Notes: generated by a model from the sequence alone, not told the origin. A DNA stretch of 64,000 bases from an uncultured Christensenella sp. (GCA_910585705.1 CAJUER010000001.1:55342-119341), one strand, 5' to 3'. Counted from the stretch's first letter, positions 7,831-63,478 are shown. Made by a program: numbers and translations.

Positions 7831-7862
7831 TAAAAAATAAGGACTTCCGAAAGGAAGCCCTT
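7831..7862 (-). terminator. intrinsic terminator of the minus-strand ABC operon
   Basis: GGGCTTCC-tttc-GGAAGTCC on the minus strand, followed by TTATTTTTT. Confidence 0.6.
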
Positions 7863-7878
7863 GAATTGTAAAAATAAG

Positions 7879-8685: not shown

Positions 8686-8709
8686 AAGTTTATTACCTTT
8701 AAGCGTTTG

Positions 8710-9435: not shown

Positions 9436-9437
9436 AT

Positions 9438-48325: not shown

Positions 48326-49830
48326 TTAAAAAACGGCTTGTACCGATAATTGCGGCTTTGGCGTGCGTGCTTGCGGCAGGTTGCGGCACGCCCGGAAAAA
48401 ATTCGACGGATCAGGAGTCGAAGACAGTTTTTCCCGTTTCCTCTTACGATGAAACTTTGCCTGTGTCTATGGGCGACGTAATGCCTTTCTACGACGACGG
48501 GGTTATGAATATATATCACCTGCAAAACAGCAGGGGTACACTCAGTCTTTTCTATCACCCCATATCGCGCCTTACAACGACTGACTTCGTCAACTATACC
48601 GACTGCGGCGTCGCGCTCGACTTCGAAGAAAATTCCCAGTCGCCGGACGCGGCTCTCGGAACGGGTTCTTTCATAAAAGATAAGGAAGGCAATTTCCATT
48701 GTTTTTATACGGGGCATAACGATAACGGACAGGAAGAGGGCTTGAAATTCAACGAAGTCATCCGTCATGCAAAAAGCGTCGACAATCAGGAAACTTGGGT
48801 AAAGGACGAAGACTTCAATCTTTACGGTTATGAAAACGACTTCCGCGACCCTTACGTCTATTACGACGCTGAAGAGGATATTTACAATATGCTCGTAACC
48901 ACGCGCGATTACGGCGTTGGCGTAATAAAAAGATATTCGTCAGCCTCGCTCGATGCGTCTTGGGAGGAGTGGCAGGACAGGGGTGTGTTTTTCCGTAACG
49001 ACGACGGCAGTTACAATATGGAGTGTCCTTCATACGTTGAGTATAACGGTTATCGGTATCTCGCTTACAGCGAGCAGGGCGAAAACCGTGTAACGCATTA
49101 CAGGTATAAAACCGAAAAGAACGGCGAGTGGAAAAAGTTCGAGCGCGACAGTATTGACGCAAGCGGTTTTTACGCGGGCAGATTGGAAAAGGCGGGCGAT
49201 AAATTATACGCATTCGCGTGGTGCGCCAACCTTTCCGCAGGCAGCACGGGCGATTTTGACTGGGGCGGCAACCTCGTCACCCACGAGATAAAACAATCGT
49301 CAAACGGAGAGCTTTGCGCCGTTATGGTCGCCAGCGTCAAAGACGCTTTTTCAAACCGCGTCAAATACGAATATATAAGCGGCGGCGAAATTAAGGAAGC
49401 AACTTTCGGCAGTAATTTTTCTGCGCGTTGCGCTGAAAAGCTCGCAACAAACGTCACGAGGATTAATTTTACATTTTCCGTCGGCGATTTCGGCGGCGAC
49501 TGCGGATTAACCTTCGGGCTTGACGGTAAGTACGACAACCGTTTGGGCACTGCGGCGGTTGCATTCGACACGGCTGAAAGCAGGCTCGTATGCTACAACA
49601 AAATTTCAAGCGTAGTACGCTACGGCGACCCGTTGGCTTCGGTTGCGTTCGCGTATTCCGCAGGACGCATATATAACGTTGATATTATTATCGAGGGTGA
49701 AATTCTCACCGTATATCTTGACGATACAGTTTGCCTTACGGCAAGGTTTCCTGATATGCAAAGAAGATGCTTTGCATTTTATTCTAACGGCTGTACGGCG
49801 GAATTCAAGGGGATAACTTTTTATGAGTAA
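48322..49830 (+). CDS. divergent GH32/clan GH-J-like lipoprotein
   Basis: 502 aa. Lipobox LAAGC. FRDPYVYYD and MECPSY present, but the nucleophile block is SMGDVMPFYDDG instead of WMNDPNG. Confidence 0.55.
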   Translation: MIKKRLVPIIAALACVLAAGCGTPGKNSTDQESKTVFPVSSYDETLPVSMGDVMPFYDDGVMNIYHLQNSRGTLSLFYHPISRLTTTDFVNYTDCGVALDFEENSQSPDAALGTGSFIKDKEGNFHCFYTGHNDNGQEEGLKFNEVIRHAKSVDNQETWVKDEDFNLYGYENDFRDPYVYYDAEEDIYNMLVTTRDYGVGVIKRYSSASLDASWEEWQDRGVFFRNDDGSYNMECPSYVEYNGYRYLAYSEQGENRVTHYRYKTEKNGEWKKFERDSIDASGFYAGRLEKAGDKLYAFAWCANLSAGSTGDFDWGGNLVTHEIKQSSNGELCAVMVASVKDAFSNRVKYEYISGGEIKEATFGSNFSARCAEKLATNVTRINFTFSVGDFGGDCGLTFGLDGKYDNRLGTAAVAFDTAESRLVCYNKISSVVRYGDPLASVAFAYSAGRIYNVDIIIEGEILTVYLDDTVCLTARFPDMQRRCFAFYSNGCTAEFKGITFYE

Positions 49831-50782
49831 ATTATATTCTGTGGGCGAGCTTTTAATCGACTTTCAATCTGTCGGAACGGGCGGTCTGAAAGAAACAAAG
49901 CAGTTTATAAAAAACGCGGGCGGAGCGCCTGCCAACGTGTGCGTTCAGGCTGTTAAGCTCGGACAAAAAGCCGCGTACCTCACAAAGGTAGGCGACGACG
50001 GCTTCGGAGAATTTTTGATAGATTCGCTTAAAAAAGAAGGCGTGGACGTTTCGTATATTTCCAGAAGCGGCGAATACGACACCTCGCTTGCATTTGTAAG
50101 CTTTAAGGACGGAGGCGAGCGCGAGTTCAGCTTTTACAGGAAAGCGGCGGCGGATCTGCACTTTACCGAACAAGACTTTAAAGACGTGAACTTCCGCGCG
50201 GACGACGTTCTCGAATTCGGAAGCGTCGCGCTTAAAACCGCGCAGGCGCGCGATACGCACAAATTTTTAATAGACCGTGCGGAGAGCGCCGGAGCGTTAA
50301 TCTGCTTCGATCCCAATTTAAGGTTTAACCTGTGGGAAAGCAGACAAGAGCTAAAAGACGCGGTAAAAGAATTTGCCGCATATGCCGACGTAATAAAGGC
50401 AGGCGCCGACGAGCTGGAATTTCTTTGCGGACTGCCCGTTGAAGAAGCCGTTAAAATTATGTTTGGCGGAAAACTTAAAATGCTGTTCGTAACCGACGGA
50501 GGCAAGGGGGCAAAGCTTTACCTTGCAGACGGCAGAAGTTATTCGTGCGAAGGATACAAGGTCAATACAATCGACACGACGGGCGCGGGCGACTCGTTCT
50601 TCGGCGGCGCGATTGCTCAGATTATGCGGCTAAATCTTAGCGCGGATAATCTTGTAAACGGCAAGACGGATTACGGTAAGATACTCGATTTCGCCTGCAA
50701 ATGCGGCGCGTATACCACAACGGGGTACGGCGCGATTCCAGCAATGGGCGACAGAGAAAATATTGAAAAGGCGGTGAAGTAA
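49823..50782 (+). CDS. PfkB-family fructokinase
   Basis: 319 aa. GGAPANV N-terminal motif and DTTGAGDSFFGG ATP/anion-hole motif. Confidence 0.85.
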   Translation: MSKLYSVGELLIDFQSVGTGGLKETKQFIKNAGGAPANVCVQAVKLGQKAAYLTKVGDDGFGEFLIDSLKKEGVDVSYISRSGEYDTSLAFVSFKDGGEREFSFYRKAAADLHFTEQDFKDVNFRADDVLEFGSVALKTAQARDTHKFLIDRAESAGALICFDPNLRFNLWESRQELKDAVKEFAAYADVIKAGADELEFLCGLPVEEAVKIMFGGKLKMLFVTDGGKGAKLYLADGRSYSCEGYKVNTIDTTGAGDSFFGGAIAQIMRLNLSADNLVNGKTDYGKILDFACKCGAYTTTGYGAIPAMGDRENIEKAVK

Positions 50783-52177
50783 ATGGCAACTGTTCAGCTT
50801 ATAAACGTAAACAAAGTGTACGACGGCGGAGTTCATGCCGTGCACGATTTCTCAATTGACATAAAGGACAAAGAGTTTATCGTGTTCGTAGGTCCTTCGG
50901 GCTGCGGAAAATCGACTACTTTGAGAATGATAGCGGGACTCGAAGAAATTTCCTACGGCGATTTTCTGATCGACGGAAAAATAATGAACAGCGCCGCGCC
51001 TAAGGACAGGGATATCGCAATGGTGTTCCAGTCGTACGCGCTGTATCCGCAGATGACGGTTTACAACAATATGGCATACGCGCTTAAACTGCGTAAAGTG
51101 CCCAAAACGGAAATAGACGAGCGCGTAAGGGAGGCGGCGAGAATACTTAAACTCACACCGTATCTCGATAGAAAGCCGCGTGCGCTTTCGGGCGGACAGA
51201 GACAGCGCGTCGCGCTCGGCAGGTCGATTGTGCGCCGCCCCAAAGTTTTCCTTATGGACGAACCCCTGTCCAACCTCGACGCAAAGTTGCGCGTCGCTAT
51301 GAGAAGCGAAATAGTGCGCATTCACGAGGAAGTGGGTGCAACCACCATTTACGTTACTCACGACCAAATCGAAGCTATGACTATGGCTTCGAGAATAGTG
51401 GTTATGAAAGACGGATTTATCCAGCAGATAGGCGAACCGAACGAGGTCTATAAAAATCCCGCAAATATGTTTGTCGCCGGCTTTATAGGCACGCCCGCAA
51501 TGAACTTTCTGCACGGCGTGATAGAAAAAGGAAACTTCGTTTTAGACGGCACGGGTGAAAAAATCAAACTTACCTCCGACCAGAAAAAGCTTGTAAAAAA
51601 TTACGAAGGCAAAAGAATAGTTTACGGCATTCGTCCCGAAAATCTTATTTTCGAGCAGTCCGAACGTTTCGAAAAATTCAAGGACTATGCGTTCAAAATG
51701 AAAGTGGGTATGATAGAACTTCTCGGCGATATCGTAAACGTTCACGGCGAAGTAGGCGGCGGCAAGGCTATTTTGAAAATGAACAGCAAATACGCCGTAA
51801 AGGATAAAGCGGAAATAAAAGCGGCTGCGGACTGCGAGTACGCACGTTTCTTCAACGAAAGTACGGGTAAAGCTATAACGGAAGAATATTGCGAATACGA
51901 AGAGGCGGAAGTAACCCAATCGCTTGACGAGGATAACGTGGTAATCGTCGAGCAAAAGCCGCAGGGCTTGTTTGCAAAGGCGGTGGACGCAATCAAATCG
52001 GCGATAAGCAAGGTTAAGCGTAAACCCGAAACGAAAGAGGAGGACTCGGCGGAAGATAAAAAAGTTGAAGCCGAGACTTTGCAAACGGCAGAGGATAAAA
52101 AAGACAAAGCGGAAACTTTGCAAACGGCAGAGGATAAAAAAGATAAAGCCAAAACTTCGCAAACGGATAACGAATAA
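50783..52177 (+). CDS. MsmK/UgpC-type sugar ABC transporter ATPase with repeat-containing C-terminal tail
   Basis: 464 aa. Walker A GPSGCGKST, LSGGQRQR, LMDEPLSNLD, TOBE-like domain, then an extra tail of about 90 aa ending in three 13-aa repeats. Confidence 0.9.
   Translation: MATVQLINVNKVYDGGVHAVHDFSIDIKDKEFIVFVGPSGCGKSTTLRMIAGLEEISYGDFLIDGKIMNSAAPKDRDIAMVFQSYALYPQMTVYNNMAYALKLRKVPKTEIDERVREAARILKLTPYLDRKPRALSGGQRQRVALGRSIVRRPKVFLMDEPLSNLDAKLRVAMRSEIVRIHEEVGATTIYVTHDQIEAMTMASRIVVMKDGFIQQIGEPNEVYKNPANMFVAGFIGTPAMNFLHGVIEKGNFVLDGTGEKIKLTSDQKKLVKNYEGKRIVYGIRPENLIFEQSERFEKFKDYAFKMKVGMIELLGDIVNVHGEVGGGKAILKMNSKYAVKDKAEIKAAADCEYARFFNESTGKAITEEYCEYEEAEVTQSLDEDNVVIVEQKPQGLFAKAVDAIKSAISKVKRKPETKEEDSAEDKKVEAETLQTAEDKKDKAETLQTAEDKKDKAKTSQTDNE
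52049..52165 (+). repeat. 3 x 39-nt in-frame tandem repeat in the ATPase tail
   Basis: Units at 52049-52087, 52088-52126 and 52127-52165 (GC(G/A)GA(A/G)GATAAAAAAG...ACTT(T/C)GCAAACG), encoding AEDKK(V/D)(E/K)AETLQT-type repeats. Confidence 0.85.
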
Positions 52178-52180
52178 AAA

Positions 52181-52208
52181 AAGCGAACCTGAAAAGGTTC
52201 GCTTTTTT
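52181..52208. terminator. bidirectional intrinsic terminator closing the fructan locus
   Basis: AAAAAAGCGAACC-tgaaaa-GGTTCGCTTTTTT. Confidence 0.85.
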
Positions 52209-52248
52209 AACTGCGCTTAAAATATATTTATTAAAAGAATAATTAATT

Positions 52249-52815
52249 TTACTGTTTTTTTATAAAGACGTAGTAATCGTAATATTTTGTTCCGTCGTGA
52301 CCTATAAGCGGTTCGTCTGATTTAACATATCCTATTGATTTCAATGCCGTAATGCGCTCCGTAGCCGAAGGTATTGCTTTTGTAGCCACTTTTTTACATC
52401 CGAACATTTCAAACGATGGTATCGTAATCAGCGATAAAATGCTTTCGGCATCCTCCGTGTTTTCGTAATCGCTACGCAAATCAAGTCTGATAAGTCCGCA
52501 ATCGGTATAATAGTCTTTTTCGTTGCGTAGAAATTCTTCTATCGTACCGATAGCTTCTTTCGTTGTTTTATCTACTATGGCGAACCTTACAAACCAACCG
52601 TTTTCGTAAGCTTGCTTCCAAAAGTCCAACGCCTGACTCATACGTTCGAGCGTAGCATAATAAAAATCATCGCCGTGACAGTTGTCGCCGTTAAAAAAAG
52701 GTACGGCTTTTTTATCGCTGTAAACCTTAAATAAATCGCTTAAATCTCTGTCGTCTATCGGTCGCAAAATAAATTTATTGTTTTGCAGTATAGGACAGTT
52801 TTCATAAATATTCAT
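52249..52815 (-). CDS. GNAT-family N-acetyltransferase
   Basis: 188 aa. FILRPIDDRDLSDLFKVYSD N-terminal pattern typical of RimJ/RimL-like GNATs. GGAGC RBS. Confidence 0.65.
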   Translation of the reverse strand: MNIYENCPILQNNKFILRPIDDRDLSDLFKVYSDKKAVPFFNGDNCHGDDFYYATLERMSQALDFWKQAYENGWFVRFAIVDKTTKEAIGTIEEFLRNEKDYYTDCGLIRLDLRSDYENTEDAESILSLITIPSFEMFGCKKVATKAIPSATERITALKSIGYVKSDEPLIGHDGTKYYDYYVFIKKQ

Positions 52816-52840
52816 AAAATTTAAAGCTCCTGGTAGTGTC

Positions 52841-52987
52841 TTATAATTTGATTATAATATAAATAAGCGCCGAATGCAACTCTATTAAAAATTTTTCAAC
52901 CTTTCGGTTAAACGCCGTCGACTCTTTTTCGGAAATAAAATGATTGCCTTTAATAACCGTAAATTCGTCGTTGGTTACGCCTTTCGG
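52841..52987 (-). pseudogene. 3-prime remnant (48 codons) of an alpha/beta-hydrolase gene
   Basis: Minus-strand frame reads PKGVTNDEFTVIKGNHFISEKESTAFNRKVEKFL..., matching the usual C-terminus of alpha/beta hydrolases (catalytic His in G-x-H-F, E-x-P-x-x-F-N-x-x-V-x-x-F-L). An in-frame TAA sits immediately upstream at 52988-52990, where AT-rich DNA begins. No start codon. Confidence 0.4.
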
Positions 52988-53196
52988 TTAAATAATTATT
53001 TTAACTCTACCGCCGGTAGAGTTTTAAATTTATCCGGTAGAGACGGAATTTATATTGTAGAATTTAGTTTTTTTAAAGTTTAGTTTTTATTTTAAATCGT
53101 ATAATTAAATCTATTAAAAGTAGGGTGTAATTGAATTTGTTATTATTTATAATGAAATTGATAAGTTGAAATAAACAATAAAAAAAGGAGCTTTCA

Positions 53197-54066
53197 ATGA
53201 ATAAAGTAAAAATAATAACCGATAGTTGTTGCAGTTTGTCGCTGGAAAAATTAAAGCAGTTTGATATTGATTTTGTTCAAATGAGCTTTACTGTAAACAA
53301 TAAAAATTTTAATGCTTATGAACACCCGATTAAAGATGGGCAAAAATTTTATGATGAGCTTGCAAAATCAAAAAATTGTTCTACAAGTTGCGTCAACCCT
53401 TACACGTTTTCCGCAATATTTGAAAAATACGTCAAATTCGGTTATGACGTGGTATATATCGGTATATCAAGCGGAATGAGCGCAACTTATAAAAATGCAG
53501 TAGTTTCGGCGAAAGAAATCAATACTGCTTTTGGCCGACACGTTTGGGTGGCTGATAGTTTGTCAGGAAGTTACGGGATTGCTTTAATGCTTGAATATGC
53601 CGTTAAACTTCGCAATGAGGGTAAAACTGCTGAGGAAATATTTGAGTCGATAGACAAAATCCGTATGAACGTGTTTGCAGTGTTTGTGCCAAGTGATTTG
53701 ATATTTTTAAACCGTTCGGGAAGAATAAACAGATTTGTTGCAAGTATCGGAACTTTGCTCAAAGTAACGCCGGTTATAACAGCCAATGATAAAGGCGAAC
53801 TTAAATTGCTTGCCAAATGTATCGGAAGAAAAAAAGCGATAAAGACGATTCAAGATTTTATTTTACAGAAAGCGTGTTTGGAAAATGAACGCAGAATTTA
53901 TATTGGACATACAGGCGTGAAAGAAGACGCGGAAAGACTTGCGGAATTTATAAAAGCAAATACCGATATTAAAGACGTTGTTGTGGACTTAATTGACTAT
54001 ACTATGGGTTGTAACTGCGGACCTTACACTCTCGCCGTTTTCGGGAAATTAAAGGTAGAGCGGTAA
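53197..54066 (+). CDS. DegV-family fatty-acid-binding protein
   Basis: 289 aa. AAAGGAG RBS. IITDSCCSL start block and ISSGMSATY motif typical of DegV. Confidence 0.85.
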   Translation: MNKVKIITDSCCSLSLEKLKQFDIDFVQMSFTVNNKNFNAYEHPIKDGQKFYDELAKSKNCSTSCVNPYTFSAIFEKYVKFGYDVVYIGISSGMSATYKNAVVSAKEINTAFGRHVWVADSLSGSYGIALMLEYAVKLRNEGKTAEEIFESIDKIRMNVFAVFVPSDLIFLNRSGRINRFVASIGTLLKVTPVITANDKGELKLLAKCIGRKKAIKTIQDFILQKACLENERRIYIGHTGVKEDAERLAEFIKANTDIKDVVVDLIDYTMGCNCGPYTLAVFGKLKVER

Positions 54067-54085
54067 CAAAATAAGCAAAATTTAA

Positions 54086-54124
54086 AAGCGGACACGTTTT
54101 GATAAAACGGGCCCGCTTTACTTT
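54086..54124. terminator. imperfect long hairpin between degV and the minus-strand gene string
   Basis: AAGCGG..CGTTTT-gat-AAAACG..CCGCTT, with T-rich flanks on both strands. Confidence 0.45.
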
Positions 54125-54231
54125 GTAAAAAATTAAAGCAAAAAAAATTATTCTTTGTCAAACTCCGCCGTCTTATTTTATCAATAGCCCGAACTTTAAA
54201 GTCTTGTCAAATGCAGCGGAACGTAAATAAT

Positions 54232-54660
54232 TTAAAAATTTTTGCAACTTAAATAAATGTGGCATACGGCAAAAATAACGGAAAAGAAAATCAACGGAAT
54301 GTTTGCCGTCACAATGCCGCTGAATATGAATATACAAGACGGAATTATCGAAAGCGACAATGCTTTTAATTTGTCGTTTCTGTTCCAACATATAATCCAA
54401 AAAATCAAATATGCCAAGCATAAACCGCCGTTTACTGACAAATAGACGGTAAGCGCATTATCAAACCAAAAGTTAAAAAATGTATACGGAATATTAAAAA
54501 TCATTAAAACAAAACAGCCGTATATGCCGATTTGTTCCAAGATTTCAACCGTTTTATTTCGGTAGGAGTTTTCGTTATTTTTATGTTTTGCGGCATAAAT
54601 AATATTCGGTATCATAATGATTGCCATTATAATAAGCCCGTAATAATTAAACCAACTCAT
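54232..54660 (-). CDS. small 4-TM membrane protein, unknown function
   Basis: I prefer the ATG at 54660 (MSWFNYYGLII..., GGAG 10 nt upstream) over the TTG at 54693. 142 aa, four hydrophobic segments. Confidence 0.45.
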   Translation of the reverse strand: MSWFNYYGLIIMAIIMIPNIIYAAKHKNNENSYRNKTVEILEQIGIYGCFVLMIFNIPYTFFNFWFDNALTVYLSVNGGLCLAYLIFWIICWNRNDKLKALSLSIIPSCIFIFSGIVTANIPLIFFSVIFAVCHIYLSCKNF

Positions 54661-54801
54661 ACTGTCAATGCTCCAAAGAAAAGCCCAAAACAATTCCTGC
54701 GGGGTTCGTTTCGGGCTATTGCTGGCGGGCAGTCATCACCCGAATTTGAACTTTTTATGTATAAAGAGCATTTCGGGATAGAAATACTGTTATAAAACAC
54801 T

Positions 54802-55566
54802 TTAAGACTTCGTTATAGTGCCTTCCTTAATGTGATATTGCTTTCCATTTGTTTCGCAAAATAGAATCACTTTTTCAGCCATTTCATTAAAGAATTTTTT
54901 ATAATCTTTATATTGCGAAACTTTTGCATTGTAATTTAGTCTCCCAAAAATTATTTTATCTACAAAGGATATTGCATCTATAATTTCATCTAAACTTTGT
55001 TCAATGAAATTAGGTGTGGGATATGGTTCAATGCTTACCCATGTTTTGCATCCCGCTTCATGGAGATTTTTTAAAGATTGTATTCTTTCAACGTATGGAG
55101 CAGAGCCTGGCTCAATCTCTTTCCTAAAATCCTCATTAAGAGAAATCAAAGTTATGCCATATTCATTTTCATTTGACAATTCGCTAAGTTCAAACGGTAG
55201 CGTTCCTTTTGTAAGTGCTGTGCATTTAATTCCACTTTCATTTAATTTACGCATACACTGCGAACTTAAATCAGATATCTCAGGATAGTTGTACATAAAT
55301 GGGTCTGTGGTAAAACAAAGTTGTACGGATTGAATTTTATCTTTCAATTTGGGTATTTCTATATCAAGCAATTCTAAAGCATTACCAATAAGTTTGGGAC
55401 AGCACCAATCCTCATAAGTTTTAGCTTTACCAAACCTTTTTGCCATCATCATAGCATAGCACGGATATTTACATCCATGCGAACACCCTTCGGCGATATT
55501 TATTGTATAATCACCATATTCAACGCCCGTCTTATAAAGCAAACTTTTTCGCATTATTTTTTCCAT
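54802..55566 (-). CDS. three-Cys-motif / SPL(COG1533)-like radical-SAM-fold protein with non-canonical CX3CX3C
   Basis: 254 aa. GCSHGCKYPCYA near the N-terminus, then blocks laid out like SPL-type radical-SAM barrels (VQLCFTTDPFMY, ALTKG, ISLNEDFRKEIEPGSAP..RI, WVSIEPYP). RBS AAAGGA inside the end of the upstream gene. Confidence 0.5.
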   Translation of the reverse strand: MEKIMRKSLLYKTGVEYGDYTINIAEGCSHGCKYPCYAMMMAKRFGKAKTYEDWCCPKLIGNALELLDIEIPKLKDKIQSVQLCFTTDPFMYNYPEISDLSSQCMRKLNESGIKCTALTKGTLPFELSELSNENEYGITLISLNEDFRKEIEPGSAPYVERIQSLKNLHEAGCKTWVSIEPYPTPNFIEQSLDEIIDAISFVDKIIFGRLNYNAKVSQYKDYKKFFNEMAEKVILFCETNGKQYHIKEGTITKS

Positions 55567-55572
55567 TTTTTA

Positions 55573-56700
55573 TTATCCTTTAATATCATAATAATCGGAA
55601 GTATAGTTACTTTTCCTAACACCATCATTTAACTTAACCAGTATACCGTCTTCAATCAACGCTTCAAATACATGCTTCTTTAAATGACTTTTTCGTAACA
55701 TCGTTTTCTCCAATATAGGGAGTGCAATATCTTGATATGAAACATGGTTTTTATTTGGCAATCCAAGAATTATCTTTTTTGCGGATTCGGCATTGCAACT
55801 GATGATATATGCTTCATTATCTTTAGCAAATTGCTCTTCCATTATTGGGGTAAAAAATGATAACTGGTTTGTGTCGATTTTGCGAGGATTGCGATAATAA
55901 GATGCACCATTAAATGTTGTCCAAAGAGCGTCTTTGAGAACTTCCAATCCTTTATCTTTAGGAGTTATGTAAATAATTTGGTAAAGCTCCGTATTCGTTT
56001 CCGTATGGAATTCATAATTAAAACTATATTTCATTTTTCCAGTCTTTAATTGGGTGATAATATAGTTTACTAATTCATTTTTGTTGTTAATATTTGCGTT
56101 TGGATTATCAATTACATTATCAATCCTTGTATCCATATCATTATTTCTATTTCTTACCCAATCACTGGTGAAGAGATTAAAAAGAAGCTCACAATAATAT
56201 TGCTGGCAAAATTTCTTTAAGGTAGGGATATGCACAGTACCGAAATCATATGGATCTACATATAGTAATGTTGTTTGTGGATATGAAAACCTCTCTTTAT
56301 TTTGAAGCAAAATTGATAAGTAACCATTTACATCTTTTTGTGAGATGAATATTTTTAAGTTTGGTAGTTTGGTTTTATACACTATGTTAATGACTTCCTT
56401 AAGCACCTCTATTCGCTTTGCGTCAATATCATTTAAGTATAGGTTAAATACACGATCTTTGTGAATAGCCGCAGACTGTATAAATAATTTTAAAACCTCG
56501 ATGGATGTGCAAAAATCTCCATCTTGATAAACCCCAGCATTGGACATACAATCAATAAAATTAATACCTTCGACAAATTGAGCATTGCCTAAAACATACA
56601 ACCAATTTTGTACATAGTTTTTAACATATTTAATTTTATTAGTTGTTTGCGGTTTTTTAAGATCTAACAACTTTTTATATTTCTTTACCAATTCTTGCAT
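55573..56700 (-). CDS. TcmP-like (three-Cys-motif partner protein-like), probable Rossmann/methyltransferase fold
   Basis: 375 aa. N-terminal K-x-x-Y-V-x-x-Y-x-x-x-W pattern followed by INFIDCMSNAGVY (motif-I-like), LYLNDID (motif-II-like acidic) and LLYVDPYDFG (DPPY-like). Recognised from memory of family TIGR04474, not searched. Confidence 0.45.
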   Translation of the reverse strand: MQELVKKYKKLLDLKKPQTTNKIKYVKNYVQNWLYVLGNAQFVEGINFIDCMSNAGVYQDGDFCTSIEVLKLFIQSAAIHKDRVFNLYLNDIDAKRIEVLKEVINIVYKTKLPNLKIFISQKDVNGYLSILLQNKERFSYPQTTLLYVDPYDFGTVHIPTLKKFCQQYYCELLFNLFTSDWVRNRNNDMDTRIDNVIDNPNANINNKNELVNYIITQLKTGKMKYSFNYEFHTETNTELYQIIYITPKDKGLEVLKDALWTTFNGASYYRNPRKIDTNQLSFFTPIMEEQFAKDNEAYIISCNAESAKKIILGLPNKNHVSYQDIALPILEKTMLRKSHLKKHVFEALIEDGILVKLNDGVRKSNYTSDYYDIKG

Positions 56701-56703
56701 AAC

Positions 56704-57051
56704 TTACTCCGAAACTTTGTTGATAATCGATTCGATAAAATCAATTTCCTCATATGTGAGGTGCTTTTTAACATCAGTACCTTTTGAAAATAAAGTTTTG
56801 AATCCTTGTGCCATCAAGAAATTTTCAGCATTTACGTAATATTGCTGAAAGGTAATGGGCGGATTATTATTTACTGTATTCCACACGAGTGTTTCCACGC
56901 AATATTTTTGCATTAGACTGTTGATATGATTTAGCATTTCATCAAATTGTTGAGTGTTATAATAAAATCGCAATTTTTCCACATCATCGATGAAATCAGC
57001 AATTTCTTTAATATCTTTATAGTGTTCAAAAATAGATTTATAATCTTTCAT
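56704..57051 (-). CDS. hypothetical 115-aa protein (orphan, helical, acidic)
   Basis: ATG with GGAG 11 nt upstream. 27 nt after the res stop and 3 nt before the next gene. No recognisable motif. Confidence 0.5.
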   Translation of the reverse strand: MKDYKSIFEHYKDIKEIADFIDDVEKLRFYYNTQQFDEMLNHINSLMQKYCVETLVWNTVNNNPPITFQQYYVNAENFLMAQGFKTLFSKGTDVKKHLTYEEIDFIESIINKVSE

Positions 57052-57078
57052 AGAATCAACACTCCAATAGTATGTAGG

Positions 57079-60036
57079 CTATTCCCTAAACAAATCTTCA
57101 ACAATTTCAACCATTTTATCGCTGTGGAGCTGCTTTCTGTAACGAACATTAGGGACTTCTCGTTGCATTTCTTCAAATAGTTTTTGCGCGCAAGTAATTT
57201 TACGCACTTCTTCCGGGTCAAGCTCGCTATTTTCTTTGTCTTTTGTTTCGACAATCAAATTCAGTTGCTTGCTTCCGTCTTTCTTTTTGACGATATACAT
57301 AAAATCGGGGCTATACGTTCCGTCGGCATAGGTCGGTATTCGTACCGTGCGTTTCGGTATTTTGCCGAATACTTCCACTTCGGCTATTTGCGATTTTATA
57401 TCAAGCGTAATATTGTCTTTTTCAAGCTGTGAATCGTAACAGCAAGCATCATAGAGGTAGTTATCCAAAACCGCTGTATCAGAAGTAAATACTCCGACAT
57501 CATTACGAATTATAGATTTTTTTAGACCGTTCTCATCGCAAAGCGGATCATTGACTTTTACGTCTATCTTTTCATAAGAATACCGTTCATTGAATTTTGC
57601 AATAAACCATAGTCTATATTCATCTACAAATCTTTGCAATGTCTGTTTGCTAAAATATTCGGAAGGTATTGCTCGCGTAGCAAAATGTTCGCATAATGCC
57701 GAATGCATCAACTTAATCGGTATATTTGTGCGTTGCTGTACTTCTCTCAAAAAGACAGAGTACGGCAAAACCTTTTTTACGGTAAAAGAAGTGCCTGCAA
57801 TATCCTCAAAATCAACGCTACCATCAGCGTCGACTTTCTTTGATTTCGCTATTTTAGTTGTAACCGTAGAGCGCCCGTCAATATTTTTTGCAAGGATATC
57901 GGCTATGGCTCTTTTTAGCACATCATCGTCAATTTTTTCAATATGTAAATAGTACTTTTGGTTTATAAGTTTCCATAATTTTTCGAGCTTGCCGAAAATA
58001 TTTTCACGAATACCAATGCGCGCTGTGTTCTGATTTTTGGATTTGTTGATGTCAATAATTTTACCATTAGACAAAGCCTTAAACAAATCGGGATAGGCAA
58101 GCATAAATTCATCTTTTTTATCTTCGATTAAACTAAAGTCTATCGGATCGATAAAGGCTTTAGCAATAATATCACGCAAGAACTCTCGAATATCAATGTG
58201 TTTTGCCTTTGCATATTTTTCAAGGAATTCTCTTGTAATTTTCAGTTCAAGACTAGCATCGCCGTTAATCTCTTTCTTTAATTTATCGGCAAAATCTTTT
58301 TCAGAATAATCAATAATATAACGCAAATACATTTGTTCGTCGCTGATGCGATTACCAAACTCATCTACCGGCAAACGCAACCCGCGCCCGACTTCTTGCA
58401 ATTTGCTTGTTTCACTTCCGCTACTGCGAAGTTTGGCAATGACAAAAACATTCGGATTATCCCAACCTTCTTTCAACGTCCACTTGGAGAAAATGAAGCG
58501 TGTAGGCTCAAAATTTCCATTATCGTCTTTAATACGTATAATTTTGTCTTTTGCTCGAAGAACCTTATCAACTTCGTTTTTAACATCGTCGCTATCGGTA
58601 TTGTTGTCCTCAGAGAAGTATGCAGCGATGGTGTCAGATAAATGATCCAAAGAATATTCAAGATAGGCTTTATACTCTTTGTCCCGTTCTGAAGAAGTAA
58701 GGGACCGAATTTCTGTCTTCAACTTGGTTAGCAGTAAATCTTCAAAGTCTTTCCTTAAATGTCCGTCATTTCGGAAAGATTCTATACTGTCAATAAAGAA
58801 GAGTGAAAGGGTTTTAATTCTATTCAAACGTCTGAAATTATCACGCTCTTTTTCAAAATGCCTGTCGAGAGCTAACGATAGCATCATTTTTTGGAAAGTA
58901 TCACTAAATACTTGCGGATAAATTGAATCGCTCGTATGCAAATCCATACCGTTTGAAAGAGTGATAATGCCTTTATCGATTTTATCTACGGTAACTCCTA
59001 TAAGACTATCATCTATTTCAGCAAGAGACTGACCTATGACTAAATCATACGCCTTCTTGGTTAATTCGTTTTGTAATCTTACCGTTTTTTCTTCACCTTT
59101 ATTTGACGTAATAGACAAAACTTTAATTTTAACTTGTTCTTTCAGTTTGGCTTCTTCGGCAATATATTCAACTTCTACGCCCTTGATAAGATTGTCGTTG
59201 AAGGCATCGCAAGAACCGAGATTAAATACTACGTTTTCGTAATCGAAAACTCCTTTCGATATTTCGGGGAACGTAGCGCCGTACCGAATAACACATTGCG
59301 GTTTTATATTGTCTATCAAGCATTTGAAGGTTTTTTGTGTGCGTGTAAATTTATGCGGCTCGTCGATAATCACAAAAGGGGCAATTTCGCGCAATGTTTC
59401 ATACGGCTTGGTATATACACCCAAAAGCGTTTGATCATAACTTGCACCCATAGTTGCCTTTGATGTAAGCATACCGCTGTTTATTAAAAGCACATCGATT
59501 CTGTTGCCGCCTATGTCTGTCGCGTTAGCAAAATCGACGATGGCAGAAGGAATCATCTTTCTGCCTTTTGTGCTTTTTTGAGAATCCAAAACGTGCAAGC
59601 ATAATTGAGTACCGCCATATAACGCCTGCAAATCTGTCCTCATATAACTCGATGTCAGGAACGACTTTGCACCTTCTTTAATGGGAACGGTAGGAACAAG
59701 TACGATAAATTTATTGATTCCGTAGTGTTTATGTAATTCAAACATAGTGCGGGTATATACATACGTTTTACCCGTACCTGTTTCCATTTTAACGTCTATA
59801 TTCAGATAATCGCTATCCGTATAATTGCGCTTATAGTAATCCGGCAATCTATAATCGTCGGCATAAAAGTCTCCGTTTTGAACAGCGGCTACATTGCGTT
59901 TAATAGCTGGATCGGAAAAATCAACACGTAAGCACTTATTTTTATCTGCACTTGGTATGAAACCAACGCCCGCGAATACACCGCAAACGGCATTTACGGC
60001 ATTCAACTGATGCGGTAAATTATTTTCTAATCTCAT
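57079..60036 (-). CDS. res: Type III restriction enzyme, Res subunit
   Basis: 985 aa. SF2 helicase motif I METGTGKTY, motif II IIDEPHKF, later motifs KLQEVGRGLRL, and C-terminal PD-(D/E)xK nuclease SPDFMY...LIVETKDKE. GAGGTG RBS overlapping the mod stop. Confidence 0.9.
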   Translation of the reverse strand: MRLENNLPHQLNAVNAVCGVFAGVGFIPSADKNKCLRVDFSDPAIKRNVAAVQNGDFYADDYRLPDYYKRNYTDSDYLNIDVKMETGTGKTYVYTRTMFELHKHYGINKFIVLVPTVPIKEGAKSFLTSSYMRTDLQALYGGTQLCLHVLDSQKSTKGRKMIPSAIVDFANATDIGGNRIDVLLINSGMLTSKATMGASYDQTLLGVYTKPYETLREIAPFVIIDEPHKFTRTQKTFKCLIDNIKPQCVIRYGATFPEISKGVFDYENVVFNLGSCDAFNDNLIKGVEVEYIAEEAKLKEQVKIKVLSITSNKGEEKTVRLQNELTKKAYDLVIGQSLAEIDDSLIGVTVDKIDKGIITLSNGMDLHTSDSIYPQVFSDTFQKMMLSLALDRHFEKERDNFRRLNRIKTLSLFFIDSIESFRNDGHLRKDFEDLLLTKLKTEIRSLTSSERDKEYKAYLEYSLDHLSDTIAAYFSEDNNTDSDDVKNEVDKVLRAKDKIIRIKDDNGNFEPTRFIFSKWTLKEGWDNPNVFVIAKLRSSGSETSKLQEVGRGLRLPVDEFGNRISDEQMYLRYIIDYSEKDFADKLKKEINGDASLELKITREFLEKYAKAKHIDIREFLRDIIAKAFIDPIDFSLIEDKKDEFMLAYPDLFKALSNGKIIDINKSKNQNTARIGIRENIFGKLEKLWKLINQKYYLHIEKIDDDVLKRAIADILAKNIDGRSTVTTKIAKSKKVDADGSVDFEDIAGTSFTVKKVLPYSVFLREVQQRTNIPIKLMHSALCEHFATRAIPSEYFSKQTLQRFVDEYRLWFIAKFNERYSYEKIDVKVNDPLCDENGLKKSIIRNDVGVFTSDTAVLDNYLYDACCYDSQLEKDNITLDIKSQIAEVEVFGKIPKRTVRIPTYADGTYSPDFMYIVKKKDGSKQLNLIVETKDKENSELDPEEVRKITCAQKLFEEMQREVPNVRYRKQLHSDKMVEIVEDLFRE

Positions 60037-60044
60037 AATTCACC

Positions 60045-61970
60045 TCAATACCGCAAGATTGGCTCAATCGAAGTTCTGTTTTTCAATGTCTTCAAGTTAG
60101 AGCGTAACGCCGTATTTGTTGTATAGCTAAAAGCATATCCGTATTCAATAATTCTGTCTATGTTCAGTTCGTGAGCTTCAATTTTTCTTACAAGCTCAAT
60201 AATAGACTTTTCAGGCATATCCTCAATCAAGTACAGGCTTGTACCGACTTTGTTATCTGAGAGAAGATAAGCAGTGTAACCGTGCAAATCAACTGTTTGC
60301 ACCATTGCATTAAAGCCGTAGCCGTCTTTTATTTTCCAAGTTTCTAAAACGGTATCCACACCGAATTTACTTTTTATATCTTCTCCGTCGATAGGAAGCA
60401 TAGGATTAAATTCGGTTATTTTATCCAATGTGTTTTTATCCGTTGCTTTCAAGTAATATGTTTTAAAACTCAAATCCACACTTGATGCACTGTCGGGGTT
60501 TGCTTTTTCAATCTTCTTCGCCGCAAGCTGTATCCTTTTTCTGCCAATTTCATCTATCGTAGTATAGCCATTTTCTTCCGCTATAGAGCCGTGAGAAACT
60601 TGCTCGGACAACTGTACCATAATAAATCTATGATTGGTTGTATTAATGGTATTATATTGCATAATTGCATGTGCCATAGAAGCTGAACCTGAGAAGAAAT
60701 CTAAAATAATATTCTCCTCATCATCATTTGTCGCCATTTGACAGATGCGCGCAAGCATCTCGATAGGTTTTGGATAATCGAAAACTTTGCATCCAAACAA
60801 CTCTTTTACTAATAAAGTACCTTTTTCTGTATTAGTATCTTTATCCCACCAAACAGAACGAGCCATTTTACGCGCTTCTCGATATTTTTCAACTATTTGA
60901 AAACCGCCATTTCGCATTGCTTTGGCTTTTATATTAATATTTAAGTTTGCTATTGCTTTATCTTTTCCCCATCTCCAAACAGTTTTAACTCCTTGTGATT
61001 CTAATGGATATAACTTTATCCAATCTTCTTTAGGAGTTAAAGAAATATCATATAACCCATTTTCATCTGCACGAGATGAGTCAATGTAGAATGGATAGTA
61101 TAAATTGGGACGATTTTCCTTGTTGAATTTTATGTTACGATTTCTTAATTCTCTTAATTCATACCCTCCGAATTCGTCAAATTGAGTAAACTCGCCGTCT
61201 TCATCGTCAATCAGGTTTATTTCACATTTATCTGTTTTTCTATAAGCGAGAATATAATCATTCATACGTGCAATACCACCATAATCTCGCCCTCTTGGAT
61301 TCGCAACAACTGTTATTTGTCCAATAAAGTTGCCTTCTCCAAATATCAAGTCGCAAAGCAATTTGGCATTTGTAATTTCATTATCATCTAAACTAATAAA
61401 AATGCATCCATCATTAGAAAGTAAATCTTTCGCCAACTCTAAACGTGGATACATAAAAGTAAGCCAAGCAGAGTGCGTGCTTTTACCTTGCATATCCAAA
61501 ACGCGCTGCGCCTCATCTTCTTCTATATTTATTTTTCTTGCAAGTTCTTCAGCAGTAAACTCAAATTTATCGTTATAAACAAAACCATCCGAGCCCGTGT
61601 TGTATGGGGGATCGATATAGATACACTTTATTTTTTCCGAATAGGAGTATTTCAAGTGTTGCAATGCATCGAGATTATCGCCTACGATATAGACATTTTG
61701 TGAATCGATATTTTTATTTTCTTCGTCGGGTAAAATAACAGTTTCGGAATCAAGACTCGCCAAATAACGGGCATAAGACTTGCCCAAGAAGTCAAGAGAA
61801 TAGCCCTCTTTCTTTATATCAACTTCTTCAGTCCTAATCAAGTCCTCAAACGTTTTCAAATCAAACTTGCCGTCTTTATCAAAGCATTGGGGAAAATCCT
61901 TTTTAAGAAGTTCTATTTCTCGGCTATTGACTTTTGCTTGAGAATTCTTTTCTATTGTTTCTTTTATCAT
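60045..61970 (-). CDS. mod: Type III DNA methyltransferase, Mod subunit (amino-MTase, beta-class motif order)
   Basis: CIYIDPPYNTGSDGF (motif IV) precedes ILDFFSGSASMAHA (motif I). I prefer the ATG at 61970 (GGAG 6 nt upstream); the ORF-track ATG at 61997 has no RBS and lies 12 nt from the predicted -10. Confidence 0.9.
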   Translation of the reverse strand: MIKETIEKNSQAKVNSREIELLKKDFPQCFDKDGKFDLKTFEDLIRTEEVDIKKEGYSLDFLGKSYARYLASLDSETVILPDEENKNIDSQNVYIVGDNLDALQHLKYSYSEKIKCIYIDPPYNTGSDGFVYNDKFEFTAEELARKINIEEDEAQRVLDMQGKSTHSAWLTFMYPRLELAKDLLSNDGCIFISLDDNEITNAKLLCDLIFGEGNFIGQITVVANPRGRDYGGIARMNDYILAYRKTDKCEINLIDDEDGEFTQFDEFGGYELRELRNRNIKFNKENRPNLYYPFYIDSSRADENGLYDISLTPKEDWIKLYPLESQGVKTVWRWGKDKAIANLNINIKAKAMRNGGFQIVEKYREARKMARSVWWDKDTNTEKGTLLVKELFGCKVFDYPKPIEMLARICQMATNDDEENIILDFFSGSASMAHAIMQYNTINTTNHRFIMVQLSEQVSHGSIAEENGYTTIDEIGRKRIQLAAKKIEKANPDSASSVDLSFKTYYLKATDKNTLDKITEFNPMLPIDGEDIKSKFGVDTVLETWKIKDGYGFNAMVQTVDLHGYTAYLLSDNKVGTSLYLIEDMPEKSIIELVRKIEAHELNIDRIIEYGYAFSYTTNTALRSNLKTLKNRTSIEPILRY

Positions 61971-62009
61971 ACCTGACTCCTTTGCCTTGAAAGACATTAT
62001 ACAAGTTTA

Positions 62010-62018
62010 ATTATATCA
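62010..62018 (-). promoter_or_regulatory. extended -10 (TGATATAAT) for the mod-res operon
   Basis: On the minus strand TGATATAAT lies about 40 nt upstream of the 61970 start. No good -35. Confidence 0.4.
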
Positions 62019-62075
62019 TACTTTTTCAAAAAAACATAGCAAATCAATGCGTCTTGTCGAAAATTGGACATAACT

Positions 62076-62344
62076 CTTACCGCGAAAATCGGGTTTCCCG
62101 ATTGTTCCAGCAAGGCGATAGCCGAGCGTCAAAATAACCGATTCCCAAGAATTTTGGTTATTTTCTTTACCTGCTTGTAAAAACAGCGTTTTATTGGCTA
62201 TTTTCCCAAAATAATCGCAGTATGGAAGCAACTATTTATTTAGGATTTTGCTTTAGTTTTGGTGCGTATTGTATACGGAAACAAAGCAGGTAAAGAAAAG
62301 TACACCAAAGTGTCTTTTGAGGTAAGCAATCGGGAAACCCGATT
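62076..62344. repeat. nested inverted repeats (18-nt and 16-nt perfect arms) forming a potential ~270-nt cruciform/stem-loop
   Basis: AATCGGGTTTCCCGATTG (62087-62104) versus CAATCGGGAAACCCGATT (62327-62344). TTTTCTTTACCTGCTT (62161-62176) versus AAGCAGGTAAAGAAAA (62284-62299). Extra CTTACC/GGTAAG arms and an internal hairpin AAAATAACC/GGTTATTTT (62131-62164). Confidence 0.75.
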
Positions 62345-62390
62345 CTTTTGTTAGATAAATTTTCACCTTCTTGATTGCAAAACCGAGAAT

Positions 62391-62828
62391 AAGTGTACTT
62401 GGTTATATGGGGATATACAAAGTTTTTTCGTCGTTTCGGTTGTATTTCTCAAAAAAGTGTCCTAGGAGATATAGAAGGGGTAAGAAAATTTTTTGAAAAA
62501 GTTTCGGTTCAGACCGTCAACTTTTTGCTATAACTGTGCTTGGTATAGTAGAGGGAGAAAGATTAAAGGTTGATGAAATTTTCGTCCACGCGTAAATATT
62601 TTCGAGATAAGTGTGCTTGGATAAGTGAAGGGAATTTTTCATTAGACCCCGAACTTTTAAAGAAAAGTGTGCTTGGTTATATAGAGGGGTAATAAAAAGT
62701 TTGCCTTAGACCGTGTACTTTTCGGGATATGTGTGCTTGGTTATATGGAGGGACTTGAAAATTCTTTTGAGAATTTCTACTCAGACCGCCACGTTTTGGA
62801 GATAAGTGTGCTTGGTTAAGTAGGGAGT
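62391..62828 (+). repeat. seven-unit degenerate bipartite tandem array (consensus AGACCG-N15-AAGTGTGCTTGGTTATATGGAGGG), non-coding
   Basis: Core copies start at 62391, 62455, 62532, 62609, 62665, 62729 and 62804 (spacings 64, 77, 77, 56, 64, 75 nt). An AGACC(G/C) box lies exactly 21 nt upstream of the core in four units (62511, 62644, 62708, 62783). Confidence 0.85.
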
Positions 62829-62863
62829 ATTTTAAGGAGGTACAACTATGAGCGGATAAACTC

Positions 62864-62892
62864 TTGACAAACAACTCCATATAGAGTAAAAT
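62864..62892 (+). promoter_or_regulatory. near-consensus sigma-A promoter
   Basis: TTGACA, 17-nt spacer, TAAAAT, directly after the last array unit and 55 nt upstream of the ATG at 62947. Confidence 0.65.
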
Positions 62893-62900
62893 ATATTCAG

Positions 62901-62914
62901 TCGTATATATACGA
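62901..62914. promoter_or_regulatory. perfect 14-bp palindrome TCGTATATATACGA at the predicted transcription start (candidate operator)
   Basis: Lies 9 nt downstream of the -10 hexamer and upstream of the GGAGGAAAG RBS. Confidence 0.4.
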
Positions 62915-62946
62915 TTATATATATTTACCCTACGGAGGAAAGAACA

Positions 62947-63213
62947 ATGGCAACAGACAGGTCTATTAAAGACAAGCGTTATGAAGAAAAGCATAAGGAA
63001 GAGAGAAAAGCCAAGTATATGATTTGGGGTACGAGCGTACCGCGAAAGTATGCCGAAGAAATAAACGAGTTTTTGGCGAAGTACGGGTTTACCAAAGTGC
63101 AACTCATCGAAGCGGGGTTTAAGGCTTTGATTGACGAAGCGGCTGAAACGGATACTTCTCTTGCCAAGACTATGGACGGCTACGACGATTTCTTTGTATT
63201 GGAGAAAAAGTAA
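62947..63213 (+). CDS. hypothetical 88-aa charged protein, possibly a small DNA-binding (RHH-like) protein
   Basis: Good RBS and promoter. Basic N-terminus (KDKRYEEKHKEERKAK), then a beta-strand-like MIWGTSVP and two short helices. The fold guess is weak. Confidence 0.5.
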   Translation: MATDRSIKDKRYEEKHKEERKAKYMIWGTSVPRKYAEEINEFLAKYGFTKVQLIEAGFKALIDEAAETDTSLAKTMDGYDDFFVLEKK

Positions 63214-63313
63214 CTCTTCTTCCTTATGGATGGTAGCGAGGAAAAATAACCGGATATCTCGACGTCCACATAGGACTTAAATTATTTTCAGCAAAAACTT
63301 TTTATCCGTAGAT

Positions 63314-63478
63314 TTGGCTACGTGTATTACTCAGCAAACAGACTATGAAATAACACAAGAACAGATAGAAACAAGCGCAACAATATTAGCAAACATACTA
63401 CTCGACTTTGTAAAACAAAACGGTACTTCTATCTTATTCCCCGAAAGAGTATTCGGCAAAGGAGAACACAATGAATAA
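63314..63478 (+). CDS. possible 54-aa ORF (TTG start) translationally coupled to the recombinase gene
   Basis: Open frame from 63281. Its stop TAA 63476-63478 overlaps the recombinase ATG at 63471 (ATGAATAA). No ATG, weak start context. May be a gene remnant. Confidence 0.2.
   Translation: MATCITQQTDYEITQEQIETSATILANILLDFVKQNGTSILFPERVFGKGEHNE

Follow-up and report, generated by a model that had tools for sequence, protein, structure and literature searches.

What do a methyltransferase-like protein and a radical S-adenosylmethionine (SAM) enzyme do side by side behind a type III restriction-modification (R-M) system? This question is raised by a 64,000-nucleotide stretch of DNA from an uncultured Christensenella sp. 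(GCA_910585705.1 CAJUER010000001.1:55342-119341; the window, in what follows), in which the R-M genes are followed by three genes for proteins of 115, 375, and 254 amino acid residues. An initial annotation of this DNA regarded the three proteins as a candidate module for nucleic acid modification, with the 375-residue protein assigned to the TcmP family and the 254-residue protein to the radical-SAM enzymes (rSAM). In the present analysis, we found that TcmP and rSAM form an obligate, tightly coupled pair, and that the pair is an autonomous, horizontally mobile two-gene cassette.

A coupled pair with unequal conservation

Gene neighborhoods were counted in 83 genome loci and in 68 loci on IMG/VR viral contigs, and the genes directly flanking the pair were counted in the genome loci (137 genes). 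A gene matching the TcmP model TIGR04474 was located immediately upstream of the rSAM gene in 75 of the 76 genome loci that could be evaluated. When a family hidden Markov model (HMM) was used instead, TcmP was found upstream of rSAM in 80 of the 83 genome loci and in 61 of the 68 viral-contig loci. The order was always TcmP and then rSAM, on the same strand. The two genes are closely spaced: 125 of 140 gaps were 40 nt or shorter, and 40 pairs overlapped, 28 of them by 4 nt. The co-occurrence of the two genes in other genomes, on which the initial annotation had staked its proposal, thus held in all three counts.

The search for rSAM homologs gave more than 7900 matches, of which the best 120 were at least 72% identical to the query. 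When one genome per species was scanned, the gene was carried by at least 500 species from more than 10 phyla, with identities of 63-85%. The carriers include Clostridia, Bacilli, Negativicutes, Alphaproteobacteria, Parasutterella, Akkermansia, and Muribaculaceae, as well as Nitrospirota, Syntrophorhabdus, spirochaetes, Elusimicrobia, and Tenericutes; most of them are gut or rumen bacteria. As the same pair is present in at least 500 species-representative genomes, its recurrence is far beyond chance.

The two members of the pair are very unequally conserved. Over 73 pairs, the median pairwise identity was 67% for rSAM (minimum 54%) and 19% for TcmP (minimum 11%), and the two identities were uncorrelated (Spearman 0.05). 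Between the window and locus L012, for example, the rSAM proteins are 85% identical and the TcmP proteins 16%. In about 14 loci, a single rSAM gene is preceded by two TcmP paralogs, a long and a short one. Such tandem TcmPs (about 379 and about 290 residues) were observed at L128 (7947-15789), L099, L119, L130-L132, L135, L138, L121, L126, L140, and L062, and these loci usually continue directly into type III mod and res genes to make a five-gene operon.

Predicted folds and relatives of the two proteins

TcmP of the window matched TIGR04474 with 107.4 bits (cut-off 53) over residues 17-261, which corresponds to positions 1-261 of the 263 in the model, in agreement with the family assignment of the initial annotation. 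It also matched the A models of two PADLOC candidate systems (PDC-M30A, 80 bits; PDC-M41A, 27.5 bits). The AlphaFold2 model of TcmP, built from 55 homologs (pLDDT 92, pTM 0.89), has a Rossmann-type beta-alpha core. In this model, INFIDCMSNAGVY follows directly after strand 45-50 at the position of motif I, D91 lies at the end of strand 84-90 as the acidic end of beta-2, and D149-P150-Y151 follows directly after strand 142-148 at the position of motif IV. The N-terminal part of about 270 residues is a class-I SAM-methyltransferase fold of the RlmJ/DUF519 type, and the C-terminal part of about 90 residues (about 285-375) is variable and helical or winged-helix. A GMT-like winged helix-turn-helix (wHTH) domain (PF22560) is present at the C-terminus in 12 of 76 relatives, and the short TcmPs (273-320 residues) are without the C-terminal helical region.

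When the model was compared with the PDB by Foldseek, a check named in the initial annotation, only SAM-dependent methyltransferases were returned, with RlmJ (6qdx/4blu) and a DUF519 protein (2oo3) among the best; the template modeling (TM) scores for the RlmJ/DUF519 structures were about 0.5 on the target. The comparison of TcmP with a viral fold library gave generic methyltransferases only. The hhalign comparison of a profile of 76 divergent TcmPs with E. coli RlmJ gave a probability of 93%, and aligned FIDCMSNAGVY with YLDTHAGAGRY (motif I) and LLYVDP-YD with LILIDPPYE (motif IV). The motifs quoted initially for a methyltransferase fold therefore occupy class-I positions in the model, and motifs I and IV align with those of RlmJ. 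Neither RlmJ nor DUF519 was matched in Pfam at E≤0.1, and motif IV reads DP-Y, not DPPY. On the basis of the fold match and of the hhalign alignment of the two motifs, TcmP is predicted to be a remote homolog of the RlmJ-type amino-methyltransferases, not a Pfam-level member of them. RlmJ, the E. coli 23S rRNA m6A2030 methyltransferase, shares the class-I fold and the aligned motifs. It differs in that TcmP lacks the RlmJ insert of about 45 residues, and that many TcmPs add a C-terminal helical or wHTH domain. Moreover, rlmJ is a conserved housekeeping gene, whereas TcmP is paired with rSAM, mobile, and hypervariable.

Only seven TcmP residues (K22, Y29, D50, G56, D149, P150, and R183) are 97-100% conserved, and all others are less conserved. 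This pattern argues for an active enzyme with a putative fixed catalytic core and free surfaces.

The rSAM protein matched PF04055 (Radical_SAM) with 40.5 bits (threshold 29.5) over residues 22-198, on positions 1-165 of the 166 in the model. Its AlphaFold2 model (pLDDT 88) is a partial (beta/alpha)6 TIM barrel, for which Foldseek found 50 radical-SAM chains in the PDB at E≤1e-3. The top TM-scores were those of spore photoproduct lyase (SPL; TMq 0.66-0.69, with 4fhc at 0.69). The SPL-type radical-SAM barrel claimed initially is thus supported by the Foldseek comparison, and the N-terminal three-Cys cluster is also present as claimed, at C28, C32, and C36. The spacing of the motif is C28-x3-C32-x3-C36 (CSHGCKYPC in the window), followed by YA, and not the canonical Cx3Cx2C; non-canonical Cys spacings are known within the radical-SAM superfamily. 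The three residues are invariant in 39 homologs and in 73 of 73 locus copies, in the pattern C-x-H-G-C-x-[YF]-P-C-Y-A, and C55, C84, C115, and C237 are further invariant cysteines.

The matches of rSAM to named families were weak. The COG1533-type families of NCBIfam were matched over residues of about 19-199 with scores far from their cut-offs (rSAM_mob_pairB, 44 bits versus 410; Rv2578c, 43 versus 430; PA0069, 38.7 versus 360), and the SPL family PF20903 was matched with 15.2 bits, below its cut-off of 27. PDB sequence searches with the family profiles of TcmP and rSAM gave nothing significant. SPL gave the best TM-scores, and all of these families weak sequence matches; the likeness of rSAM to SPL (SplB, 4fhc) and to the COG1533 'DNA repair photolyase' proteins is at the level of the fold only. 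SPL acts on DNA. In contrast to SPL, the rSAM of the window is about 85 residues shorter, has Cx3Cx3C in place of Cx3Cx2C, scores far below the family cut-offs, and is obligately paired with TcmP, with no link to sporulation or UV repair. Thus, rSAM represents a distinct SPL-like Cx3Cx3C clade that has no name in Pfam or NCBIfam.

The pair that defines TIGR04474 is TcmP with DUF5131 (Gp37/Gp68, PF07505), which corresponds to the PADLOC candidates PDC-M30 and PDC-M41. This canonical pair has a first gene of the same family, the same gene order, the same tight coupling, and a similar context in mobile elements or defense islands. The two partner proteins have homologous N-terminal cluster segments, which share 45% identity over 33 columns, with CYA at the end. 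However, rSAM aligns with the DUF5131 partner over its first 35 or so residues only, and the cluster of the Hymenobacter Gp37/Gp68 protein is C19x6C26x2C29-YA, versus Cx3Cx3C-YA in the window. The score of rSAM on PF07505 was 21.4 bits, below the threshold of 28.9, and covered only positions 2-82 of 243, whereas canonical Gp37/Gp68 partners score 332-336 bits (332 for the Hymenobacter plasmid protein). Of the two fold classes named for the 254-residue protein initially, the radical-SAM class (PF04055) therefore stands, and membership in Gp37/Gp68 (Cx6Cx2C) does not. Since the PF07505 score is below the threshold, the Cys spacing is different, and the alignment is restricted to the N-terminus, rSAM lies outside the classical three-Cys partner family and is a sister variant to it. 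The three-Cys neighbor of TcmP is thus present in the window as an adjacent, variant partner with invariant C28/C32/C36. As the PADLOC B models of PDC-M30/M41 matched only residues 12-57 of rSAM with 18-20 bits, PADLOC would probably miss the TcmP-rSAM system.

DUF5131 has been curated as a radical-SAM subgroup placed next to SPL (PMC9477430). PDC-M30 has been described as a non-validated system found by 'guilt-by-embedding' and is present in 32 of 100 P. aeruginosa strains (PMC10855318), and a tcmP gene is located beside the Hna defense gene in S. meliloti (PMC12445080). On the Hymenobacter plasmid NZ_CP049909.1 (L093, 5947-7843), the genes annotated as tcmP and Gp37/Gp68 overlap by 20 bp, and the pair is flanked by a tyrosine recombinase and an IS4 transposase, with a HigB toxin-antitoxin (TA) pair close by. 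In the copy on a Streptomyces plasmid (L094), the canonical tcmP and Gp37/Gp68 genes are convergent.

The TcmP/three-Cys pairing was already known as an NCBIfam model, and the canonical pair as PADLOC candidates. The Cx3Cx3C SPL-like partner clade, the RlmJ link, the asymmetry of conservation, the tandem TcmPs, and the exchange with Lamassu described below are new here.

The carrying element and its neighborhoods

In the window, the pair occupies a cargo slot of a serine-recombinase integrative element that is about 11 kb long and has the order recombinase, 88-residue gene, slot 1, orphan (the 115-residue gene), slot 2, and end block. The features are as follows.

54723-54784, no strand: conserved block (about 60 bp), distal limit of cargo slot 2
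54802-55566, minus strand: radical-SAM (rSAM) gene, 254 residues, cargo of slot 2; reading frame as in the initial annotation
55573-56700, minus strand: tcmP, 375 residues, cargo of slot 2; matches TIGR04474
56704-57051, minus strand: orphan, 115 residues, scaffold gene of the mobile element between the two cargo slots
57079-60036, minus strand: type III Res, 985 residues, cargo of slot 1; NF012027, 1000 bits (cut-off 564); PADLOC REase_III, 789 bits
60045-61997, minus strand: type III Mod, 650 residues, cargo of slot 1; PF01555 and PF18273 (EcoP15I C-terminal domain); PADLOC MTase_III, 514 bits
62947-63213, plus strand: 88-residue scaffold protein, adjoining the recombinase; 99% identical in L095
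63471-64000, plus strand: N-terminal part of a large serine recombinase (resolvase-type N-terminus in the translation); the gene runs past the end of the window

The five co-directional genes at 54802-61997 are transcribed in the order mod, res, orphan, tcmP, and rSAM, and the gaps are 27 nt between res and the orphan, 3 nt between the orphan and tcmP, and 6 nt between tcmP and rSAM. The three reading frames that the initial annotation had placed behind mod and res were found exactly at its coordinates, each on the minus strand, and the type III membership of the R-M genes was seen in the matches to both subunit models. The GC content is 33-39% at about 52-64 kb versus 44-52% in the remaining window. 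The recombinase is complete in locus L001 of the metagenome-assembled genome GCA_949935825.1, in which it is next after the 88-residue gene and consists of 514 residues with Resolvase, Recombinase, and Zn_ribbon_recom domains.

The architecture of the element was revealed by locus L095, in which the region 1-10323 corresponds to 54723-64000 of the window. The scaffold is conserved between the two (recombinase, 93% identity; 88-residue protein, 99%; orphan, 83%), and the similarity ends at the stop codon of the orphan and at the block of about 60 bp. This block begins about 20 nt past the stop codon of rSAM and shares 93% identity with L095 10266-10323, directly after the Lamassu cargo there; the sequences diverge on both sides of it, and it may be an end of the element. 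The contents of the slots are different: type III R-M and TcmP-rSAM in the window, and a DpdF/PsyrT-like helicase with a 101-residue gene, and Lamassu, in L095. Since the scaffold is kept while the cargo differs, the element is a scaffold with two swappable slots, and its family consists of serine-recombinase integrative elements of about 10-11 kb with two swappable defense slots. Because the slot of the pair holds Lamassu in L095, this exchange is the strongest single argument from context for TcmP-rSAM as a self-contained conflict or defense unit.

The same comparison separates the orphan from the pair. The orphan accompanies TcmP and rSAM in only 3 of the 83 genome loci and in none of the 68 viral loci. 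Its homologs (9 by a word-index search, and 112 cluster representatives by an exhaustive search, all of about 90-120 residues) form a family without a known domain, and the orphan itself matched nothing in Pfam, NCBIfam, or the PDB. In L095 and L096 (83% identical), it lies between the DpdF/PsyrT-like helicase with the 101-residue gene and Lamassu (LmuA, 282 bits; LmuB, 400 bits), and in L097 and L098 (59% identical) between a type IIG R-M enzyme and a 1486-residue nSTAND3 NTPase. As these homologs precede Lamassu or nSTAND3 where TcmP and rSAM are absent, we rejected the orphan as a third subunit; it is a scaffold gene of the element between the cargo slots, and the three-gene module of the initial annotation is reduced to two genes.

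Several scans of the island added little. The 88-residue protein matched no family or structure in Pfam, NCBIfam, or the PDB; the Rfam scan gave only a tmRNA-like noise match of 13 bits; the promoter and terminator scan gave no more than expected from shuffled sequence and did not inform on operon structure; and no phase-variation tract was found in mod by the tandem-repeat scan. The isoelectric points and charges of the proteins did not discriminate between DNA binding and other roles. In L002 and L003, the res, orphan, tcmP, and rSAM genes are nearly identical to those of the window, whereas mod is different: 622 residues in L002 (212-2080) and a truncated 269 residues in L003 (609-1418), as compared with 650. 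As mod differs while its neighbors do not, the mod allele may have been replaced or have decayed.

The commonest recognizable families among the 137 flanking genes were type III Mod and Res, type I HsdR, type IIG/ISP fusions, a FokI-like enzyme, Fic, HipA, and Cro/C1 and S24 regulators. Type IIS and type IV restriction enzymes were likewise found among the neighbors, and serine or tyrosine recombinases and Mob_Pre relaxases were frequent somewhat further from the pair. In four loci, L052 (10773-11186), L067 (10774-11187), L021, and L027, a peptide deformylase gene adjoins the pair, an unusual housekeeping neighbor.

The type III genes behind which the initial annotation had placed the pair recur in other loci. 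A type III mod gene was found within a few kb of the pair in 14 of the 83 genome loci and in 19 of the 68 viral-contig loci, in two architectures: the mod-res-TcmP-rSAM order of the window, and TcmP-rSAM-mod-res, in which the gaps are about 10 nt. Adjacency to type III R-M was seen in about 15-25% of loci, so that the link is recurrent, and it is facultative. An obligatory dependence of the pair on type III R-M was rejected, since most loci are without R-M genes and others have type I, IIS, IIG, or IV systems.

On the viral contigs, the neighbors were DNA methylases, ResIII, MvaI/BcnI, HindIII, GmrSD, and helix-turn-helix (HTH) regulators, with a single terminase; the pair adjoins R-M and regulator genes there, not replication or structural genes. 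Close homologs were almost absent from curated phage genomes and from PLSDB plasmids. For these two reasons, we rejected the idea that the genes are phage-encoded DNA hypermodification genes.

Two genes precede the operon in 29 of the 68 IMG/VR loci and in 6-7 of the 83 genome loci: a small one for a Cro/C1 HTH protein, and a divergent one for a protein of about 650 residues; the window has neither the larger protein nor the HTH_26 gene. In L101 (6520-8882), an HExxH motif (IHECVHWDKH) is present in the larger protein (phrog_4031), together with an XRE-type HTH at the C-terminus, and a 76-residue Cro/C1 HTH_26 gene lies directly upstream of TcmP. Protease-repressor controls of mobile elements and immune operons are known as ImmR/ImmA and CapH/CapP (bioRxiv 10.1101/2022.04.27.489752). 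The HExxH motif and the weak HTH match suggest that the two genes may be an ImmA/IrrE- or CapP/CapH-like inducible control.

On the distal side of the element, the low GC content (about 34%) persists past the apparent end, at 52200-54723. This region encodes a multi-pass membrane protein of 153 residues (54232-54693, minus strand), a DegV family protein (53197-54066, plus strand), and a GNAT acetyltransferase (52249-52815, minus strand), and it may be a second acquired segment or a locally AT-rich region of the host. Beyond it, 46967-52177 is a fructan/sucrose utilization cluster with two GH32 glycoside hydrolases, a PfkB-family sugar kinase, and a MalK-type ABC ATPase, which are ordinary host genes with the GC content of the host. 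The ABC-transporter ATPase gene (50783-52177) has a 39-bp tandem repeat (52047-52166; 3.1 copies, 86% matches) at its 3' end, which is translated into an acidic/lysine tail with repeats of a AEDKKDKAETLQT-like sequence.

Possible roles of the pair

We propose that TcmP-rSAM is a nucleic-acid-directed, probably DNA-directed, conflict or defense module; our confidence in this proposal is a little short of even. Of the modification or defense role suggested by the initial annotation, the defense part gained support from the PADLOC candidate models, the R-M-rich neighborhoods, and the slot exchange with Lamassu; base hypermodification is a hypothesis. In the proposed mechanism, the hypervariable TcmP would select the target and flip or prime a base, possibly by methylating it. 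The near-invariant SPL-like rSAM, in complex with TcmP, would then use a [4Fe-4S] cluster and SAM for 5'-deoxyadenosyl-radical chemistry at the site chosen by TcmP. The product would be a hypermodified base, or a lesion that blocks the invader. Amino-methyltransferases gain access to bases by base flipping, and SPL acts on flipped-out DNA bases, which is a precedent for such a mechanism. A two-step logic of this kind is also found in wybutosine synthesis, in which Trm5 methylates the base (m1G37) and the radical-SAM enzyme TYW1 then builds on the same base; however, Trm5 and TYW1 belong to unrelated families in a tRNA housekeeping pathway, and their genes are neither an operon pair nor mobile.

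In its boldest form, the proposal would be a nuclease-free, radical-based, restriction-like immunity, in which interchangeable TcmP specificity or sensor subunits, sometimes two, direct one rSAM to modify or damage the nucleic acid of the invader. Such a system would differ from the viperins and from every known R-M type. We regard this form as speculative and rather doubtful.

Several points weigh against the proposed conflict or defense role. The Cys spacing of rSAM (Cx3Cx3C) departs from the canonical one, and confidence in its model is lowest in the cluster loop (pLDDT about 70). Motif IV of TcmP is one residue shorter than DPPY, so that methyl transfer by TcmP is only putative, and RlmJ, the nearest characterized structural relative, has rRNA as its substrate, not DNA. 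The pair has no universal link to a nuclease or to any other obvious effector, and for stand-alone pairs, such as that of L007 beside guaA, nothing accounts for self/non-self discrimination. The cargo slots of mobile genetic elements (MGEs) carry anti-defense and addiction genes too. The literature on TcmP, DUF5131, PDC-M30/M41, COG1533, Rv2578c, and radical SAM with defense yielded no functional study, and no experimental evidence was found in it for any TcmP or for this rSAM clade. Embedding can also mislead: a core SPL-like rSAM merely flanks a defense hotspot of P. aeruginosa (PMC10250203).

The pair may instead be a protective or epigenetic DNA hypermodification module that adds a non-standard, sequence-specific modification to bases of host DNA or of the element itself and has no effector activity of its own, either as the 'M' arm for neighboring restriction enzymes or as an anti-restriction mark that helps the element in new hosts. 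Such a function would account for the type III mod and res genes directly adjacent on the same strand, with gaps of 2-18 nt and in two architectures, for the 14 genome and 19 viral-contig loci with a mod gene near the pair, for the type IIG/ISP enzymes directly upstream in several loci, and for the location on integrative and mobilizable elements. DNA methyltransferases of different specificity also diverge with only motifs I and IV fixed, as TcmP does. However, more than 75% of the copies are without an adjacent restriction gene, and the adjacent type III systems already own a Mod. The slot swaps are with complete defense systems (Lamassu, STAND), not with methyltransferases, and the pair is almost absent from curated phages and plasmids, where anti-restriction modification genes are common. 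We therefore consider this explanation unlikely, although it survives better than the following ones.

Two further explanations are improbable, and to a similar degree. In the first, the pair makes a viperin-like small-molecule antiviral: rSAM converts a nucleotide, and TcmP methylates it before or after that step to give a chain-terminating or toxic analog. Prokaryotic viperins (pVips) are an established radical-SAM antiviral precedent, a viperin-like enzyme was among the Foldseek matches of rSAM (9dfn, rank 3, TMq 0.55), and the extreme conservation of rSAM fits a fixed small substrate. The best TM-scores, however, were to the DNA-acting SPL and not to viperin; the 19% identity of TcmP, its tandem paralogs, and its winged-helix domains are unexpected for a small-molecule methyltransferase; and no nucleotide kinases or transporters are linked in the neighborhoods.

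In the second, the pair modifies rRNA or tRNA in the manner of RlmJ or Cfr, for resistance to antibiotics or toxins or for translation shutdown during infection. Cfr is an MGE-borne radical-SAM modifier of rRNA, the closest characterized relative of TcmP is the 23S rRNA methyltransferase RlmJ, and the carriers are mostly gut or rumen bacteria. Against this, conservation would be expected of an enzyme whose target is a universally conserved site in RNA, and TcmP is hypervariable; the neighbors are R-M and defense genes, not resistance genes; and the 45-residue RNA-binding insert of RlmJ is missing from TcmP in the hhalign alignment.

Least probable of all is a TA-like addiction module that stabilizes the island, with rSAM as the toxin and the variable upstream TcmP as the neutralizer: a variable first gene with a conserved second one, frequent 4-nt overlaps, the mobile-element location beside R-M, Fic, HipA, and HigB genes, and the tight, putatively HTH/protease-type regulation in many loci, which suggests costly expression, would fit it, but TcmP is large for an antitoxin (375 residues) and keeps catalytic-looking methyltransferase residues at 97-100%, which is unexpected for a simple antitoxin, and no similarity to TA families was found in Pfam, NCBIfam, or PADLOC.

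As a conflict or defense module, TcmP-rSAM would join two other groups of systems. Ophion is an anti-phage system composed of an rSAM, a PHP, and a PRTase protein (bioRxiv 10.1101/2025.09.30.679545). Both Ophion and the pVips use radical-SAM enzymes in anti-phage defense, but these belong to other rSAM clades and have other partners, with no TcmP, and free nucleotides are the substrates of the pVips.

Thousands of genomes have TcmP and its three-Cys partners annotated, and PADLOC counts these proteins among its defense candidates. The pair described here is particularly amenable to experiments, as a minimal two-gene unit with a natural slot swap with Lamassu and with clear catalytic-looking residues to mutate (C28/C32/C36 of rSAM; K22, D50, D149/P150, and R183 of TcmP). 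Should the pair be a DNA-modification system, modified bases would become accessible by a further, new enzymatic route, of interest for epigenetic tools. Should it be an immune system, bacterial immunity would gain a second radical-SAM chemistry, probably aimed at nucleic acid, and a new design of specificity, in which a variable methyltransferase-fold subunit is combined with a fixed radical enzyme.

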